Shown: positions 869 through 42,115 of the stretch, one piece after another
Numbering within the stretch: the first letter of the stretch is position 1
How the letters are laid out: the number at the start of each line of letters is the position of its first letter
IMG/VR virus record: IMGVR_UViG_3300036984_000039
Span: 32,001-96,000 of that record
Reading direction: 5' to 3' (one strand)
DNA length: 64,000 nucleotides
Origin: a virus
Lineage: Duplodnaviria; Caudoviricetes
Program-made: the position numbers and the translations under genes
The notes under the pieces: generated by a model
What the model was told of the DNA's origin: nothing
Database searches by the model: none
Seen by the model: only the letters and a program-made list of their open reading frames with translations

Positions 869-1712
869 ACGACACTCCGCATAGACTAAATCCAGCGGCT
901 TCTTGAACTTACGTCCAAGCTACGGGTATTACTACCTGGCCCGTGTCCGGGCGTCTACGCATACTCCGCTTGCCAAAGGCAGCCGGTCTACGATGCTTGA
1001 TTTCCGTGGGCATCGGCAATCGTCCTGGCTCACCATGTTTGTATGACGAGAGGATATTGATTTGCCCTACTATGTCGCGGTGCCCACGGAAGCCACAGAC
1101 CGAGCAACGATAGACGCGCCCCTGTGGTTTATGTCGATTACCGCAACTTGGACAAGTTTGACTTGTATACGCTTCGTTTTGCAGTTTCACGGCGATACCC
1201 TCTGCCGCGGCCTTATACGTGGTATACTTGCGTACCTGACCGTGATTCCAACCGCTAACTTTCTGATTTGTGCGCTTGCCGAGCGCAACTTCATCGGCCA
1301 CGTCGCGCACATCGCCGTAGACGATAGTCGCCGCGCCCAGGACAACCGCTTCGTCTACAATCGCCCGGCTGATTTTGTGTTCCATATCGCGCAACACGCG
1401 GTTGTGCTTGGCTTTCATACGAGACTTGACACGCACCAACTTCTTATAGGCTCGACTACCGCGCTGCTTGCGGCTCAGGGACTTATCCAGAGATGCCAAT
1501 CGCTTGGCGTGACCTTGCGCTTCGTGCCGACGTTCGCGACAAGTGATGATAGTCGCACTGCTTTCATCACCAATTACAGCAGGATGAATCTCACCCGGAT
1601 CGACGCTTACTACGTTCATGCCCGGTGCTGACTTGGGTTGCTTGCCGTTTTCAACGACCACGTGCCAGGTGTAGCGCCGGTCGCGCTTGTCGAAAACCAA
1701 CCGCTGCACTGG
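869..1712 (-). pseudogene. tnpB: N-terminally truncated TnpB (IS200/IS605 family) with right end/omegaRNA
   Basis: RuvC I (VSVDPG), RuvC II (IVYGDV), zinc finger CPSC..CSVC and RuvC III (HRDIVGQINI). The HTH/REC N-terminus is absent. Right-end hairpin GAAGCCGCTGGATTTAGTCTATGCGGAGTGTC at 902-871. Confidence 0.85.
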
Positions 1713-1713
1713 T

Positions 1714-2073
1714 TCATATTCCGAGTAGCGCATTACGCTCGGCTTCCGGCAGAAACATCGGACGATACCATGCGCGCGGCATGTTGGCGTCAATCCAGGC
1801 CAGGGCTGTAGTGCTAACCATGAGCCAAACAACGGCCAACATGGATGACGGGTATCCTTCGATATCATCCGTCCAGCGAACCATTGCCTTGTTGGCGGAA
1901 TCGCCTTTGACGGCGGAAAGCACGGCATCAGCCTGTGATTCAAACATGCCGTTTGCGACCAGTTCTTTCCTTGCCCACTGCTCAAATGTCACTTTGATCT
2001 CCTTTCCTGCGAGCGGGTGATCGGCCCTTCCGCCCGATGAGGTACGGCGCTCAATCACCCGCCCAATGGTCAT
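1714..2073 (-). CDS. Hypothetical phage protein
   Basis: ORF coupled to the upstream gene by ATGA, with a GAGGA RBS. Confidence 0.6.
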   Translation of the reverse strand: MTIGRVIERRTSSGGRADHPLAGKEIKVTFEQWARKELVANGMFESQADAVLSAVKGDSANKAMVRWTDDIEGYPSSMLAVVWLMVSTTALAWIDANMPRAWYRPMFLPEAERNALLGI

Positions 2074-14884: not shown

Positions 14885-15532
14885 CTAAAGGCCGGTGGCT
14901 TGCGGCGGGTTACGTCCCGTCAGTTTGATTTCCGGTTCTTTGCGCCCACAGGATAGACAAGTGTAATCGTATTCGGCCTTCAATGACTCCCATTGCGCAA
15001 TCGAGTAGTGCTCTCCTGCCTGTTCAATGCGAAGTCTGCGCTTATGCGTTTCGCGATTTCGTATCATTTTGCCGCGTTCTGGATTTTTCTTGTACCAGTT
15101 ACGGACGCTGGTGAGATTGCGTTCTGGATGGGCTGCCCTCCAACGTCTATTGCGCTCATTTGCCTCATCGCGGTGAGCACGCGCATATTCTTTCTTGTAA
15201 GCCCGAATATCATCTCGGTGAGCAGAATGCCACGCCTTAATCTTCTCGTCTTGTTCTGCCCGGTGAGCCAAGCGCCATACCTTGCGAGCCGCGACGCTTC
15301 TTTCCGTATTGGCTTGATGCCAAGCCTTGCTCTGAGCACAAATCTGTTCGCTATGCTTGGCATAGTAGGCTTTCCTTCTGGCCTTGATTTTATCAGGATG
15401 TGCTTTTCTGTAGGCTGCATCCGCAATGGCGACACACGCCTTACAACGATATTCAAGTCCATCCTTGCTACGTGACCGTTTTCTGAATTCAGATTCTAGT
15501 TTTTCGGAATGGCAAACGGAGCAGGTTTTCAT
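14885..15532 (-). pseudogene. HNH endonuclease truncated just before its DH motif by the IS left end
   Basis: CSVC..CKAC, basic helical repeats, then WESLKAEYDYTCLSCGRKEPEIKLT followed by IS-end sequence. Confidence 0.8.
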
Positions 15533-36778: not shown

Positions 36779-37201
36779 ATGAGTAACCCAACGGGCAAAG
36801 GCGGCTTTGCCGAACGCAAGCACCAGATAAACAAGAAGGGGCGGCCAGCCTCCTTCGACGCTTTGCGCGCGCTTTCGCAGGAGATCGCGCACGAAGTTGC
36901 CAAGACGAAGGACGGTCAGCAGGTCGAGATTGAAGGGCACAGGGTCACGAATGCCGAACTGATCCTGCGGCTCTGGGCATCCTCGCAGGACTTCCGCAAG
37001 CAGCAGGGCTTCATGGAGATCGCTTACGGCAAGGTGCCGCAGGAGACGCGCATCACCGGCGCGGAGGGCAAGCCGTTGCTGAACATGCAGGAAGTCATCG
37101 CGCTGATGGCCCAGGCGGACAAGCTGCTGGCCGAGGGGATGGTAACGTTGACGCCTGCTGAAACCGTCCTACCCGAACCGCCCGCGGAAGTTCACGAGTA
37201 G
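36779..37201 (+). CDS. Putative terminase small subunit (DUF5681-like)
   Basis: NPTGKGGF..INKKGRP N-terminus; EIAYGKVPQ..ITGAEGKPL. Confidence 0.6.
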   Translation: MSNPTGKGGFAERKHQINKKGRPASFDALRALSQEIAHEVAKTKDGQQVEIEGHRVTNAELILRLWASSQDFRKQQGFMEIAYGKVPQETRITGAEGKPLLNMQEVIALMAQADKLLAEGMVTLTPAETVLPEPPAEVHE

Positions 37202-37256
37202 CCGTTTGCCGCCTCATGGCGACATACTCGACTTGCGCGTGATCCGCATGTCCACC

Positions 37257-38089
37257 TCATAACCCAAGCGTGACCTGGCGCGCACAGTCGGCGTGATGTC
37301 CCACTCTGTCAAGGGCAGAACACCACGGGCAAATCCATTTATCATCCGAGAAGCATATCCACTCGATGGCTTCCAGCGCAGCGCGCAGCTTTGCTGCTTT
37401 CGCTTGCAGGTCGACAACCTCGGCGTGATATACTGCATTGACCTGCCTGAGCGCGGTTTCGGTATCGCGTAGGCGGGCGACCTCCGCCTGGAACTCGCCG
37501 CGCTGCACAAGCGCCAGACTCAGCGCCTCGGTCAGTTCTGCCACGTTGTCATCACTCACGTTGCAACCTCCGTCGTGTAAACCAACCACCATTCCTGGTA
37601 ACGATAAATCTTGCGGCCTTGCGCATCATATTTGCCGGTATACTCGAAACCGGACAGCATTTGGCCGTCTGCGCCGACGAAATCCAACTTAGCGCGTTCC
37701 ATATCCGCGACAATCCGCGCATCAGCGTCCGGGCCGGTGAAGGCCAGCGCCTCGCCCTTCTGGTCTACGGAGAGCAGGACGCGTCCGAGTCGCTTCGGTT
37801 TGGGCTGCTGCGTGATAAGCTCGTAGTAACGATTCATGGTCAACTTCCTTCCTGCGCTGTCCAGTGGATCAGCTTCAAAACCGCCGCCGCTCCGTAGGTC
37901 TGCCGCGCTCGACGCAAACCCACCTCGGCCTCCGCCTGGTCATAGATGCGCGTCTTGCCCGCGCCGTCCTCAAGCTTAATCCAGCCGCCGAACAGCACCG
38001 CCGAAGCGTCCCATAGCCAAATTCCCCAATACTCGCGCATGTGGCGCACCAGCAACTTGTTACGCACTTCCTCGGTGTCCTGGTACATC
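37257..38089 (-). CDS. Three small hypothetical genes (37257-37559, 37556-37837, 37840-38089)
   Basis: Coupled ORFs with RBSs; the first has a coiled coil and CPWC..H..C. Confidence 0.55.
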
Positions 38090-38660
38090 ATGCACCTTCC
38101 TGTGTTACGCTCAGGGTACTTGCGACCCCCCACACCTTGACGCGCGTCTTGTGGTCGGGACGGATCAATTTACCCACCGCGAAGATGCGCGGTGGCTTGT
38201 CGTGCAGCAGATGATGCCACGCGCCGCGATAGGCGTTATACACCTCTCGGTCGTCACGCGGCACGGCGAGCGCCTCAAGGATTTCCGCGAACGTCAGCGG
38301 GCGCGCCTGCGCGATCATGCAAGCGAGCAGCCGCTCGGCCATGTCATTCATGGCGACTTGCTGGTCTTGGCGCACGACCTGCCGTTCGACCTCCGCAACG
38401 CGGACCCGGCACGGCATAGGCTCCAAGCGGATCGCGGCGCGCATACATACGACGCGAAACTCACAAGGCTGATTGGTTGTCACGTCGAGGCACTTGCCCA
38501 TGCCGTCCACGTCCTGCGCATCTCGCACGGCCACCAGCGGCGACATGGCCGTTACGCGCACCTGATCCGCCTCAGCCTGCGTCATGCGCCAGGCGTTCGC
38601 TTCGCCCGGATCGCCACCGGCGAAATTGCGGGATGCGCGCCAGACGTGGCTACCGATCAT
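38088..38660 (-). CDS. Hypothetical protein with possible C-terminal winged helix
   Basis: Follows promoter TTGACA-N17-TATAGT (38715-38687); RPLTFAEILEAL. Confidence 0.6.
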   Translation of the reverse strand: MIGSHVWRASRNFAGGDPGEANAWRMTQAEADQVRVTAMSPLVAVRDAQDVDGMGKCLDVTTNQPCEFRVVCMRAAIRLEPMPCRVRVAEVERQVVRQDQQVAMNDMAERLLACMIAQARPLTFAEILEALAVPRDDREVYNAYRGAWHHLLHDKPPRIFAVGKLIRPDHKTRVKVWGVASTLSVTQEGA

Positions 38661-38711
38661 GGTTCATTTCCCTCTTTCGTACGTATACTATAGCACAAGT
38701 CTTGCCATTTG

Positions 38712-38918
38712 TCAATCGGCAGTTTCGAGGTATTCCAGCAGCGCCAGCGCGCACAGATCATCGGCGCGCGCGTTGTGCTCGCGCGGCACCCACTTGATCC
38801 AGGCCCGTGCCTCGTCTAGCCGATCTTGAATTTCAAAGCACAAGGGCCGCAGGTGCGCCGCGTGAATCTGCCAGCGCCCATTGACCGTCAAGACCAACAG
38901 CCGCGAATCACTCAGCAG
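38712..38918 (-). pseudogene. RNase HI-family gene, 3' half only
   Basis: LSDSRLLV..VNGRWQI..LRPL..WVPREHNARADDL; in-frame TGA immediately upstream. Confidence 0.8.
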
Positions 38919-38949
38919 CCCTCATCCCACACGCCCGTGGGGTGAACCC
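38919..38949 (+). repeat. Solitary degenerate type I-E-like CRISPR repeat
   Basis: CCCTCATCCCACACGCCCGTGGGGTGAACCC resembles repeats of the form ..CCCCACGCCCGTGGGGGTGAACCG; single copy. Confidence 0.4.
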
Positions 38950-39000
38950 TAACGAGCGTTACCCCACGTATGCGATTGTCAAAGCGTGTGAGTTCCTGGT

Positions 39001-39645
39001 TCATCTGGCGGCCTTACTGCTCCTACCATCCCCAGGCCGATAATCAACAATCTTATCGTGCTTGCTGCAATTGCAGGACTTGCAAAGCGGCTGAAGGTTA
39101 TCGATGGTATGCGATCCGCCTTTTGACAAGGGTACAATATGATCTTGCGTGATATTCTCTGACGAACCACATCGAAGACAGACGTTCCCGTAATGGTTAC
39201 ATAACTGCATCCATGCAGACTCGGAAACGACTCCACCAGCCCCCTTCTTTCTAGCTCTCCGCCGTCTGTGTGCCTCTCTTAGCTTATCGACGTTAGTCTT
39301 CTGCCATTTCCTTACCGCCTCCAAACATCGTCCCGGATGCCGCAAGTAGTATCGTCCCGGATGCCGCAAGTGGTACAGGCGATCATTTGCTTGCTTTTTG
39401 TCGGGGTTGTTTTTCGCCCACTGTCGAGACCTTTCTCTATCCCTAACGGCTATTCCAGGATACCGTTCGCGTTGCTTCTCGTTGATCTCGTCCTTGTTTT
39501 TTGCGCGCCATTCGCGTTGATAAGCGGCATGTTCAGCCCTATTTTCCTGTCGCCAAATCCTTGAACGTTCTCTCCCGCATGGCGCGCATTTCCCGTTTTT
39601 CAACCATTCAGACGAACCACATCTAGGACATATCTTAGTAGCCAT
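39001..39645 (-). CDS. HNH endonuclease occupying the position of tnpB
   Basis: CPRC..CAPC; CLRCG..QDHIVPLSKGGSHTIDNLQPLCKSCNCSK. Confidence 0.92.
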   Translation of the reverse strand: MATKICPRCGSSEWLKNGKCAPCGRERSRIWRQENRAEHAAYQREWRAKNKDEINEKQRERYPGIAVRDRERSRQWAKNNPDKKQANDRLYHLRHPGRYYLRHPGRCLEAVRKWQKTNVDKLREAHRRRRARKKGAGGVVSESAWMQLCNHYGNVCLRCGSSENITQDHIVPLSKGGSHTIDNLQPLCKSCNCSKHDKIVDYRPGDGRSSKAAR

Positions 39646-39745
39646 TTGTCCAATTCCAAGTAAAGCGCGCAATACCGGCACAGCGCCAAAAATACTGTTC
39701 CTGCTCAGGCGTCGGGTTTAGTCGTATACGATGCGCTCTGTGCAT
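39635..39745 (-). pseudogene. tnpB: tnpB 5' stub (36 aa, not in ORF track)
   Basis: MHRAHRIRLNPTPEQEQYFWRCAGIARFTWNW matches the TnpB N-terminal HTH; RBS AAGGAGG. Confidence 0.85.
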
Positions 39746-39884
39746 CGACACCCTCCTTCTGTGCCTTCTCGCGAACGGCTATCTCGATGACTGCGGTACG
39801 CGTTACGCCCAACTTGTGCGCCAGCAACACGAGTAACTCGCGACACTCATCTGTGAACCCGTAGGTGGATTTCGTCTTTGGCAT
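39705..39884 (-). CDS. Ribbon-helix-helix-like regulator (leaderless)
   Basis: Paralog of 15529-15678 (LLAHKLGVTRTAVIEIAVREKA). ATG lies 6 nt after TTGACA-N16-TATAAT. Confidence 0.8.
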   Translation of the reverse strand: MPKTKSTYGFTDECRELLVLLAHKLGVTRTAVIEIAVREKAQKEGVDAQSASYTTKPDA

Positions 39885-40011
39885 ATTTACATTATACATA
39901 CTTTTCGCGTCTTGTCAAGCAACTGCAAACGGGGTTCTCAACTGATTGCCTTGACTGTGTAACGGCTAAAAGCCTGTCCAGCGGGCCTATAGGGTGAAGT
40001 TAAATGCACGG

Positions 40012-41013
40012 TCATCGCGCGTACCATAGGCGGCTCAACGGCACGCCGCAAGACACCAAGACGGGCGGTAGATGGTCGCTCAACTTGGCGGGTATGAAGG
40101 GGCGCGTGTACCAGCGATACGACATGGACAGATGAGAAAGATCGGATGTCGGAAGGGCCGTCGAGTTCTGCGAGCAGCGGTGCGCCGGCAAGGGCTTTTT
40201 TTCTGCGTGCATGTGGGTCGCCAAACGGCGACGGCGGGTCTGTGTGCGTGGGCGGGAAAGTTGATTGATAATCTGTCCAGGGCGTAGGTCGCGGGTTGGG
40301 AAGTAACTATTGGCAAGCTGCCAAACGATAAGGTAGACCTCCTGACAAGTGCGACGATGTTCGATGAATTCAGCCAAGCGCGTAGACGAGAATAGTCGGC
40401 CACATTCGCAGTGCATCTCGTGCGGACGTTCCGGCATATCGTGCAGCGTCTCCGGCAAGGTGAAAGCCCAGTTCGACAGGTGTTTGACGCCGGCGCGGCG
40501 TTCCCAATTGCGCAGGGTAGTGGCGGTGACGCCGAACGCCGCGATGAGCCGACTGCGCGGGATGGGCGCAGCGCGCACTTCGCGATAACCGGCATGTGTG
40601 ACGACTTCGGGCATGGGCAGCCAGCCGGCAAAGCACAAGGCGTTGAAATGGTGTAGGCTGGCGAGTTCGGGCAGCGGGATTAGGATGGGCGATACTTCGG
40701 CCTGGGCGTCGGTGGCGATCTGCGCCAGCACGTAATTGGGGTTACGCACATAGAGGCGGGCGTGCTTGGCGTCCACGTCCCACCAGATACCGTCGCCGCG
40801 CTGTAGCAGGTGTTTCGTCCAGCGCCGTGAGACACCGAATGCTTCATGGGCGGCGTACAGCGCCTCTACCTGGGTCAACCAGCGGCGCGCGCCTTGCCGG
40901 TCGTGCAACAGGGCATACAGGCGATGCTCGGCGGCTTGCCCGGCGCGCACGGCATGGCGAAAGAGTTCTGGCTGTACGCGGATGGCGGGCGGGTTGGCGG
41001 GATCGTCGGGCAA
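40012..41013 (-). CDS. Hypothetical HTH protein, possibly replication-related
   Basis: TTG start after AGGAG; RSRLIAAFGVTATTLRNWE HTH; CECG..H..C. Confidence 0.6.
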   Translation of the reverse strand: MPDDPANPPAIRVQPELFRHAVRAGQAAEHRLYALLHDRQGARRWLTQVEALYAAHEAFGVSRRWTKHLLQRGDGIWWDVDAKHARLYVRNPNYVLAQIATDAQAEVSPILIPLPELASLHHFNALCFAGWLPMPEVVTHAGYREVRAAPIPRSRLIAAFGVTATTLRNWERRAGVKHLSNWAFTLPETLHDMPERPHEMHCECGRLFSSTRLAEFIEHRRTCQEVYLIVWQLANSYFPTRDLRPGQIINQLSRPRTQTRRRRLATHMHAEKKPLPAHRCSQNSTALPTSDLSHLSMSYRWYTRPFIPAKLSDHLPPVLVSCGVPLSRLWYAR

Positions 41014-41186
41014 AAGAAAAGCTCCTGCGCGCTGCGGTGGTGCCGACTAGCCGACAGGAAGCTTTCGCACTTGCTGAGGGTGCTAGGCATTATCGGCCTC
41101 ACCGCAACGGGTAGGAGCCTCGCTTCCTGTCTACTGCACTTGTGGCATTCACCAGTTCAGCGGACTGGCAACCTTCACCTCAAGCG
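41014..41186 (-). promoter_or_regulatory. Structured 5' leader RNA, copy B
   Basis: Homologous to 11859-12035. Promoter TTGACA-N16-TATAAT at 41220-41193. Confidence 0.7.
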
Positions 41187-41407
41187 TCTTTGATTATATC
41201 ACAACCTGCCCGTTTGTCAAGAGGCAGTTTTGCGCATCACGCGGCGCGTTCCTGCTAGGCGTCGCGCAGCGCCTCGTTGAGCGTGAGATTTTGCATCACG
41301 CGTTCTCATCTCCATCGGCCCGGCTTGCCACGCACAGCGCGGCCATGATAAGCGTACCGCCGATAGCGCCGATAACTGCTGCGGCCAGGACGGTCAACCA
41401 CGTAGGA

Positions 41408-41847
41408 TCAGGCATTCTCGTCTCCATCGGGGTCTTCGTCCAGGCGCACCGGCTCGCGCAGGATGGCGTAAGACGGAGAGATCATGTAAGCATTATCCGA
41501 GAAACGCTTGATTATCATTTGAGGCGTCCAATCGACAAAGCCGCGCGCGACGAGCAGGTTTTGCAGGGTGAACCACTGCTCGGCAGCCGCGCAGACGATC
41601 TCGACTTCCGGGCGGCAGCCATATGATACGCGGGTGCGGGAAAGGGCCAGCGATTGTTGTGCGTTCATTCTACACCATTCTGTCTGAGCAGCCAGGTCAA
41701 GCGCGCCACTTCGTCGGCCAGGGCGTCGCGCTCGGCAATCAAGCCCTCACGTTGCAGCCGCAGCGCCTCGAACATGCGTTGCGCATGTAGGGTTGCCGCG
41801 TGCGCGCTGACATCCGGCGCGGGTTGGGGTTCGGTGGGCTCATTCAT
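41408..41847 (-). CDS. Two small hypothetical genes (41408-41668, 41665-41847)
   Basis: Coupled ORFs with ATGA overlap. Confidence 0.55.
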
Positions 41848-42115
41848 GGCCTTGCACCTTCCATGCGTTTCGTATCGCCTCAGCCACCCACAGCGGCACG
41901 TAGGCGGGGGCTTTGTCCGCGTCGGCAGATACGGCCAGGATCAGGCCGCGGTCGGCGGCAATTTGCAGGGCGTACTTGGTCACGCTATAGGCCGGTTTGC
42001 CCATCGCGGTGCTCAAGGCGCGCAGCGTCGGCGGGCGACAGTGTTCGGCCCAATATGCGTCGAGCGCCTCAAGCGTCTCTTGAAGGCGCACCTCGGAGAC
42101 GACGTGCCCGGTCAT
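41840..42115 (-). CDS. LexA-like N-terminal HTH protein
   Basis: YWAEHCRPPTLRALSTAMG..VTKYALQ..DRGLI. Confidence 0.6.
   Translation of the reverse strand: MTGHVVSEVRLQETLEALDAYWAEHCRPPTLRALSTAMGKPAYSVTKYALQIAADRGLILAVSADADKAPAYVPLWVAEAIRNAWKVQGHE

Follow-up and report, generated by a model that had tools for sequence, protein, structure and literature searches.

A probable decayed Arc-TnpB cassette in a phage RNase H gene, with an HNH endonuclease gene in the tnpB slot

A promoter, a small ribbon-helix-helix (RHH) gene, a truncated tnpB, an HNH endonuclease gene and an omegaRNA-like tail follow one another within about 1 kb of a phage genome, and the locus raises the question of whether such an arrangement represents a recurrent class of RHH-HNH-omegaRNA elements, as the preliminary description had proposed, or a TnpB cassette in which one nuclease gene has taken the place of another. 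The window, by which we mean the whole 64,000-nt stretch that was analysed, comprises bases 32001-96000 of a 107,546-bp IMG/VR virus record and has a GC content of 59%. Terminase, portal, protease and major head genes were found, as in a tailed phage, and sediment metagenome runs contain the sequence; the host element is an uncultured sediment phage. A blastn search of the phage GenBank collection with positions 37000-42000 returned no match. The features on which the argument rests are as follows.

38919-39953 (-): whole island of ~1.03 kb, comprising promoter, arc-like RHH gene, tnpB stub, HNH gene and omegaRNA remnant; delimited by composition and Logan contigs
39891-39918 (-): sigma-70 consensus promoter, TTGACA-16-TATAAT, 12/12 matches
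39705-39884 (-): leaderless Arc-like ribbon-helix-helix gene, 59 aa; assigned by identity to the RHH of locus L173, AF2 fold and Foldseek
39635-39758 (-): tnpB relic, with Shine-Dalgarno sequence AAGGAGG (39758-39752), ATG at 39745, 32 homologous codons to 39650, 4 junction codons and TAA (39637-39635); assigned by Pfam and identity to TnpBs
39001-39645 (-): complete HNH endonuclease gene, 214 aa; assigned by Pfam (HNH/HNH_5), PHROG and family alignment
39329-39376 (-): tandem 24-bp duplication, in frame, 2 mismatches; read from the sequence
38919-39037 (-): 5'-truncated omegaRNA remnant with helices 2, 3 and 4 and the terminal GAGGG; assigned by covariance model, alignments and covariation
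38712-38918 (-): 3' half of an RNase H (RVT_3) gene; Pfam RVT_3 75-122 of 123; 67-121

Both hexamers of the promoter match the consensus at every position, reading from 39918 to 39891 with a 16-nt spacer; no other promoter was found ahead of the HNH gene on its strand. The ATG of the RHH gene (39884) lies 6 nt past the -10 hexamer and lacks a Shine-Dalgarno sequence. Identical promoter geometry (-10 hexamer, 6 nt, ATG) was found in L173, a locus on another IMG/VR contig with different neighbours, and a similar spacing, of 7 nt, at a second tnpB-derived island of the window, at 13.4 kb, so that the leaderless start claimed for this gene appears reasonable. The final 14 codons of the ORF overlap the ribosome-binding site and start codon of tnpB. 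Its product is 46% identical to the L173 RHH protein and was modelled by AF2 (pLDDT 77) as a short N-terminal segment followed by two helices, for which the top Foldseek hits in the PDB were all Arc, CopG and RHH antitoxins; the scores were weak (E 0.3, prob 0.9), as expected for 59 residues. Among Pfam families the only match was a weak one, to PSK_trans_fac, and the RHH profile found no meaningful hit among PDB sequences. Ordinary phage operons are headed by more distant relatives of this protein. An identical stretch of 18 nt over the -35 region (GTTGCTTGACAAGACGCG) is present at window positions 39906-39923 and at L087:674-691, where it precedes an unrelated gene, and could be a promoter/operator module shared between these phages.

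The pairing of an RHH gene with tnpB is not confined to this locus. An RHH-like gene that is co-oriented with tnpB and abuts or overlaps its start was seen in 5 of 241 fetched TnpB loci (L007, L013, L113, L161 and L162); Pfam RHH_1 scored above its cut-off in two of the five upstream ORFs, the other three giving matches below the cut-off or weak RHH-type hits. Together with a recent preprint (Moon, Zedaveinyte, Wiegand & Sternberg, bioRxiv 10.64898/2026.09.24.754181), these loci support RHH-tnpB as a recurrent operon type. According to that preprint, Arc proteins inside IS605-family elements repress strong native promoters, and homing endonucleases are frequent neighbours of arc (10.64898/2026.09.24.754181). 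The most fitting reading of the RHH gene is as the cassette's Arc-type head, and its product presumably represses the cassette promoter.

Behind the RHH gene lies the start of a tnpB gene. The stub ORF (39745 to 39635) was proposed to be 36 codons of tnpB, and this was confirmed for all but its end: 32 codons are homologous to TnpB and 4 are junction codons, followed by TAA. It matches Pfam HTH_OrfB_IS605 with an E value of 3.7e-15, with only HMM positions 1-33 present, and in the suggested comparison with TnpB it aligned to the N-termini of full-length proteins of 381-411 aa that bear all three TnpB Pfam domains, with 86-88% identity. The TnpB relatives point to a host of the phage that is probably among the Chloroflexota. 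The DNA of the stub is 76% identical to that of L087, L088 and L092, and the tnpB homology stops at 39650, directly after the conserved F-T-W-N-W codons. Of a full TnpB protein (N-terminal HTH/WED, RuvC, zinc-ribbon) the stub keeps this beginning only, and it is a relic and not a functional member of the TnpB family.

The HNH gene was said to be complete and to begin within the stub, and both points hold. Its ORF is intact from ATG 39645 to TGA 39001, the ATG lying four bases past the end of the tnpB homology and 8 nt short of where the stub's stop codon ends. Pfam HNH and HNH_5 both matched above their cut-offs (E about 2e-12), and PHROG assigned the protein to endonuclease VII / HNH. In an alignment of 22 family sequences all 17 invariant columns (Cys, Asp-His and Asn residues) are kept, and the catalytic positions together with two Cys-x-x-Cys zinc ligand pairs place it in the HNH class PF01844/PF14279 (beta-beta-alpha-metal). 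The family alignment further identified this ATG as the native start and the C-terminal DYRP, which ends at 39034, as the native end; the final 11 codons and the TGA are supplied by the omegaRNA remnant. The domains are those of the family, a zinc ribbon, helical repeats and the HNH core, with no extra domain. This family is very large (200 hits), consists of free-standing proteins of about 200 aa and occurs in many unrelated contexts; the closest homologue, P0020, is 56% identical, and a single-protein viral scan gave distant hits only. Judged from its sequence, the HNH protein is probably a protein-only nuclease, similar in kind to the free-standing homing endonucleases of phages. The 24-bp duplication falls within the variable helical region and amounts to an 8-residue insertion relative to P0020. 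An apparent resemblance of the HNH 3' end to the 3' ends of tnpB genes, in the letters GATTATC, was considered and rejected, as DYRP is the native, conserved C-terminus of the HNH family.

The sequence into which the HNH gene runs had been claimed to be a tnpB-type 3' tail. Positions 39037 to 38987 align to sequence 50-60 nt downstream of the tnpB stop in L087 and L088 (80% over 51 nt), which are the two closest tnpB loci fetched (L087 is 94% and L088 77% identical to P0001). A five-way alignment contained a conserved block ending in GTGGAGTGAGGG, for which the window has GTGGGATGAGGG at 38930-38919. The covariance-model search that had been suggested was carried out with a model, R1, made from four sequences, the tnpB 3' flanks of other contigs, with the window excluded; cmsearch detected the tail at 39059 to 38916 (50.4 bits, E 2e-10). 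The alignment was good over helices 2-4 and the 3' end but left helix 1 unaligned (gaps, low posterior probability). In some 35 TnpB loci that are more distantly related, R1 also matched the plus strand immediately after the tnpB stop. Over 22 matches, 94.7% of cells were paired and 26 of 29 pairs had compensatory changes, in an alignment that was itself fitted to R1; none of 500 shuffles reached this level, and slid controls paired at ~40%. The pairing proposed between CCTGG and CCAGG proved to be real and covaries in relatives (CCTAG/CTAGG, CCTGT/ACAGG), and helix 4 of the window carries a compensatory C-G for U-A change. The R1 match, the covariation and the unaligned helix 1 identify the tail as the 3' part of a true omegaRNA family, truncated at its 5' end. 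Its derivation from a tnpB locus therefore stands, but not the extent first given, as it runs further, to 38919, and only the 3' part of the RNA is present.

The omegaRNA at the 3' end of the element is thus partial: helix 1 is missing, helix 4 is expanded by 42 nt, and a hairpin is present at the element's right end. At the 3' breakpoint (39038-39034) the letters GCCT are common to the Arg-Pro codons of the HNH gene and the start of helix 2. Folded as a single sequence, the tail is no more stable than shuffles (z -0.99), so the structural support belongs to the family and not to the window copy. Nothing relevant was returned by Rfam at E values up to 10, the remnant having no match there, and a blastn comparison of the tail with 80 viral TnpB loci of more remote relationship turned up no more than chance-level words; detection needed close relatives or the covariance model. 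The remnant is unique in the genome, and R1 found no second copy in the window, so that the other tnpB genes there, which are of different subtypes, lack this type of RNA. The guides or spacers of L007, L087, L088, L173 and the window had no match elsewhere among the compared sequences, and no RNA run was found among the listed public runs containing the sequence. We infer that the remnant is a fossil, supplying just the end of the HNH reading frame. A function of the window RNA as a trans guide is unlikely, because the RNA is 5'-truncated and overlapped by coding sequence.

Positions 38919-38990 were also considered as a solitary type I-E-like CRISPR repeat; they actually belong to the omegaRNA remnant, of which they form helix 4 and the 3' end, and they look CRISPR-like because the same hairpin is arrayed in L007 and L087. 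In these loci, the 29-nt 3'-terminal hairpin of the omegaRNA family forms CRISPR-like mini-arrays beside TnpB genes of the same clade. L007:2343-2830 (-) has a scaffold and at least 6 repeats with 32-34-nt spacers, divergent from the RHH-tnpB pair of that locus, and L087:2247-2495 has an orphan omegaRNA with 2 further repeats (period 62) that ends 9 nt before an intact tnpB, which also has its own 3' omegaRNA. The two mini-arrays, on phage or metagenome contigs, look like transposon-CRISPR intermediates (TranC-like), and omegaRNA mini-arrays beside phage TnpB genes bear on the route from TnpB to Cas12.

The limits of the island were examined by composition and by comparison with related phages. 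The island has a GC content of about 50%, whereas its flanks have 60-66%. Four sediment runs (X1-X4) provided Logan contigs for comparison over 38700-40100, those of X2-X4 being read only where covered. In X1, which may be the sample from which this DNA came, and in X2 the island is unchanged. A single X3 contig connects 38880 with 39954 through 249 letters of other sequence, and further contigs of X3 and X4 match the window to 38919, with ~96% identity over the RNase H part, and then continue into unlike sequence. On the minus strand this unlike sequence ends in ...GGCTTCAC, followed by an ambiguous G and then by the window's CTGCTGAGTG; in frame, GGCTTCAC, G and CTGCTGAGTG plausibly give a continuous RNase H, ...G-F-T-L-L-S-D-S.... 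An empty-site allele was thus detected in related phage contigs from other sediment metagenomes, as read from contig ends of which only 30-nt consensus stretches were used, and presence of the island is polymorphic, island-bearing and empty-site alleles both occurring among related sediment phages. Since the homology in X3 and X4 stops at 38919, the island ends on its right, to the base, at the omegaRNA 3' end that other contigs had predicted. At the empty site TTCAC(G), a candidate target motif, directly precedes the flank in the X3/X4 contig ends, the layout expected for a TnpB TAM plus guide, and the first bases of the RNase H relic occupy the place where the former omegaRNA guide would be templated.

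The left side is different. Here the island, ending at 39953, replaces ~210 nt of the 5' half of the RNase H gene and does not simply split it, and this missing sequence requires a second event, by deletion or recombination. No such TTCAC motif is adjacent to the left junction; no left-end hairpin or TAM was found at 39953, none being convincing by reading over 39953-39919, and TTCAC at 39998-39994 was rejected as a left TAM, this stretch being common to the empty-site relative. The ORF list shows no tnpA adjoining the island, and no relative with an intact RHH-tnpB-omegaRNA at this site was found. The 190-aa downstream neighbour had no relatives in the viral scan and so provides no syntenic phage locus for comparison. 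A second near-consensus promoter (TTGACA-17-TATAGT with TG) lies at window positions 38687-38715 (-), overlapping the last codons of the RNase H relic, and precedes this 190-aa ORF (38088-38660), which has no family match.

To return to the question of a class, 86 viral loci with relatives of the HNH protein (30-57% identity; 1.5-kb or 2-kb flanks) were surveyed with a local TnpB HMM, which as a control recovered every known relic in the window. None of the 86 loci had a tnpB relic, nothing credible was found with R1 in the 80 loci scanned for omegaRNA, and no RHH-like upstream ORF was seen by eye. The HNH family is therefore independent of TnpB parts, and the counts (0/86, 0/80, and no RHH by eye) speak against a propagating RHH-HNH-omegaRNA class. 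Nor did HNH genes and intact omegaRNAs occur together in any conserved fashion. The idea that this nuclease uses the RNA fares no better, as the remnant is without helix 1 and further 5' parts and the HNH ORF just extends into it for 11 codons; nothing found connects the HNH protein with the RNA, and a new RNA-guided system is not supported. Of the preliminary description, then, the replacement of tnpB by an HNH gene is real, but the recurrent class of elements is not supported. At L173:1416-1730 (-), a complete omegaRNA comes immediately after a promoter and leaderless RHH gene, and both tnpB and an HNH gene are absent; the sole TnpB on this 27.6-kb fragment is 25% identical to the clade. The L173 module could be either a tnpB deletion or a stand-alone guide module, and it may show a different decay route of the same cassette type, an omegaRNA without a nuclease.

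The other tnpB-derived island of this phage, at 13.4 kb, had been presented as an independent case of the same architecture. Independence is well supported: neither the two stubs nor the two RHH proteins show BLASTP similarity, and the HNH proteins are 31% identical. The architecture differs, since at 13.4 kb the related HNH gene lies upstream of the stub, between it and its RHH gene, and not inside tnpB; 45 codons of tnpB are kept there, compared with 32 here. The 107-kb genome has three members of the HNH family, and each is located within or next to one of these two islands. The third paralogue, at 14885-15532 (-), breaks off just before its catalytic Asp-His, where the 13.4-kb island begins, and the order of nesting there would be that the island entered an HNH gene and nuclease genes then entered the island. 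The phage genome has at least 3 intact tnpB genes, of different subtypes, in addition to the two N-terminal stubs, and no cognate TnpB for the remnant omegaRNA. A further TnpB-like ORF lies at window positions 912-1988 (-), with an open frame of 359 aa that matches local HMM positions 148-354 (E 3.5e-19) and is without a recognisable N-terminal HTH; with at least 4 intact or nearly intact copies and two relics, TnpB genes are unusually abundant in this phage.

The best explanation, to which we give a probability of about three in four, is that the locus is a decayed Arc-TnpB cassette in a phage RNase H gene, the tnpB slot of which was taken by a protein-only HNH endonuclease. The ancestor would have been an IS200/IS605-family element with tnpB only and no tnpA, headed by an Arc-like RHH repressor. 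From codon 33 of tnpB onwards, together with the 5' part of the omegaRNA, this cassette has been replaced by almost exactly one HNH ORF; the replacing piece starts 4 nt ahead of the HNH ATG, reaches to the final conserved codon and shares 4 nt (GCCT) with the remnant at its 3' junction. The HNH gene would use the expression signals of the cassette, namely a strong, RHH-repressed promoter, a leaderless RHH gene and a stub translated from its Shine-Dalgarno sequence; as the stub TAA overlaps the HNH start, ribosomes terminating on the stub may reinitiate at the HNH ATG. Expression, translational coupling and activity of the HNH gene are in this way predicted from the sequence. A swap that is precise to the ORF is tighter than usual for random insertion and hints at selection or a directed mechanism. 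Nested selfish elements of this kind may recur because selfish cassettes are rare cost-free landing pads in a tightly packed phage genome.

How the HNH gene came to be there, and whether it still spreads the island, could be understood in other ways. It might be a parasite of a parasite, a homing endonuclease that cuts intact tnpB or Arc-tnpB cassettes and is copied into them by repair, with the stub and the omegaRNA tail as homology arms and Arc-homing endonuclease gene (HEG) cassettes arising from Arc-TnpB by payload swap. The phage has two independent tnpB cassettes gutted by nuclease genes, with all three HNH paralogues located there; the swap is ORF-precise, with the 5' junction just after F-T-W-N-W, the most conserved N-terminal motif, and the 3' junction in a conserved omegaRNA helix; and the frequency of homing endonucleases beside arc (10.64898/2026.09.24.754181) is as such a process would predict. 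The HNH-relative survey nevertheless turned up no tnpB relic, omegaRNA or arc-like upstream gene (the last by eye), the junctions differ between the two loci of the phage (32 or 45 codons, and an HNH gene upstream of the stub at the other), and no donor/recipient pair was observed; this specific cycle, though a live alternative, is unlikely. It also seems improbable, to our minds, that the HNH protein recognises and cuts the RNase H-intact allele, so that the island would still spread in co-infections without any TnpB. Such a takeover by homing would suit the circulation of both alleles in related sediment phages, the intact state of the HNH gene under its strong promoter, and the habit of free-standing HEGs of residing in or beside the gene that they cut, their own copy being disrupted (PMC13565253); yet the HNH family occurs in many unrelated settings.

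A nuclease guided or regulated by the omegaRNA tail, which would found the proposed RHH-HNH-omegaRNA class, can draw on the tail being a real structured piece of omegaRNA carried on the HNH transcript and on the compensatory change in its helix 4. It is nonetheless highly improbable: helix 1 and everything further 5' are deleted, the family is free-standing elsewhere and accompanied by this RNA in none of 80 loci, the protein has no domain beyond the zinc ribbon, helical repeats and HNH core, and in L173 it is the RNA that is kept without a nuclease. We therefore retain the decayed Arc-TnpB cassette as our reading of the locus. A broader proposal, offered here only tentatively, is that Arc-headed phage cassettes exchange their nuclease payload, HEGs invading TnpB cassettes ORF for ORF by way of the tnpB 5' end and omegaRNA arms and inheriting the Arc-controlled promoter, in which case this locus would be an intermediate caught in the act. 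If that were true, it would explain how the Arc-HEG pairs of the Arc preprint arise.

The locus is a natural case, resolved to the base, in which one selfish nuclease gene displaced another within the same regulatory and mobile shell, and it suggests an origin for pairs of Arc and homing endonuclease genes. It also indicates that omegaRNA fragments beside nucleases other than TnpB are to be taken for fossils where the full scaffold is lacking.

Several known systems share parts of this arrangement. Orphan omegaRNA elements, with an omegaRNA that has no cognate TnpB beside it, are described by Altae-Tran et al. (2021, as cited in PMC10691335); the window copy differs from these in being 5'-truncated and overlapped by coding sequence, whereas L173 and L087 hold complete orphan copies. 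TnpB-only IS200/IS605 elements (IS1341-type, e.g. ISDra2) have the same HTH_OrfB_IS605 N-terminus, and structured RNA running 3' of tnpB to the right end, with a TAM-plus-guide layout for which TTCAC is the candidate motif here. Of these elements the island retains 32 TnpB codons and about two-thirds of the post-stop RNA scaffold; it has neither RuvC nor zinc-ribbon, its left end is unrecognisable, and on that side the target gene has lost 210 nt. RHH-tnpB cassettes are already known from the Arc-containing IS605-family elements (10.64898/2026.09.24.754181), which likewise have a small RHH (Arc) gene beside tnpB inside the element and a strong native promoter; here, by contrast, the leaderless arc gene is co-oriented with tnpB, no tnpA adjoins the cassette, and the body of tnpB is replaced by HNH. 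Finally, phage HNH homing endonuclease genes of the free-standing sort (intronless homing, T4 Seg/Mob type; PMC13565253) resemble the present gene as stand-alone HNH proteins of roughly 200 aa with zinc-binding Cys pairs, and in forming an island that is polymorphic among relatives and disrupts a neighbouring gene. Unlike them, the HNH gene described here, with homing as its candidate function, sits inside the shell of another selfish element, from which it appears to borrow its promoter, its repressor and its translation start.
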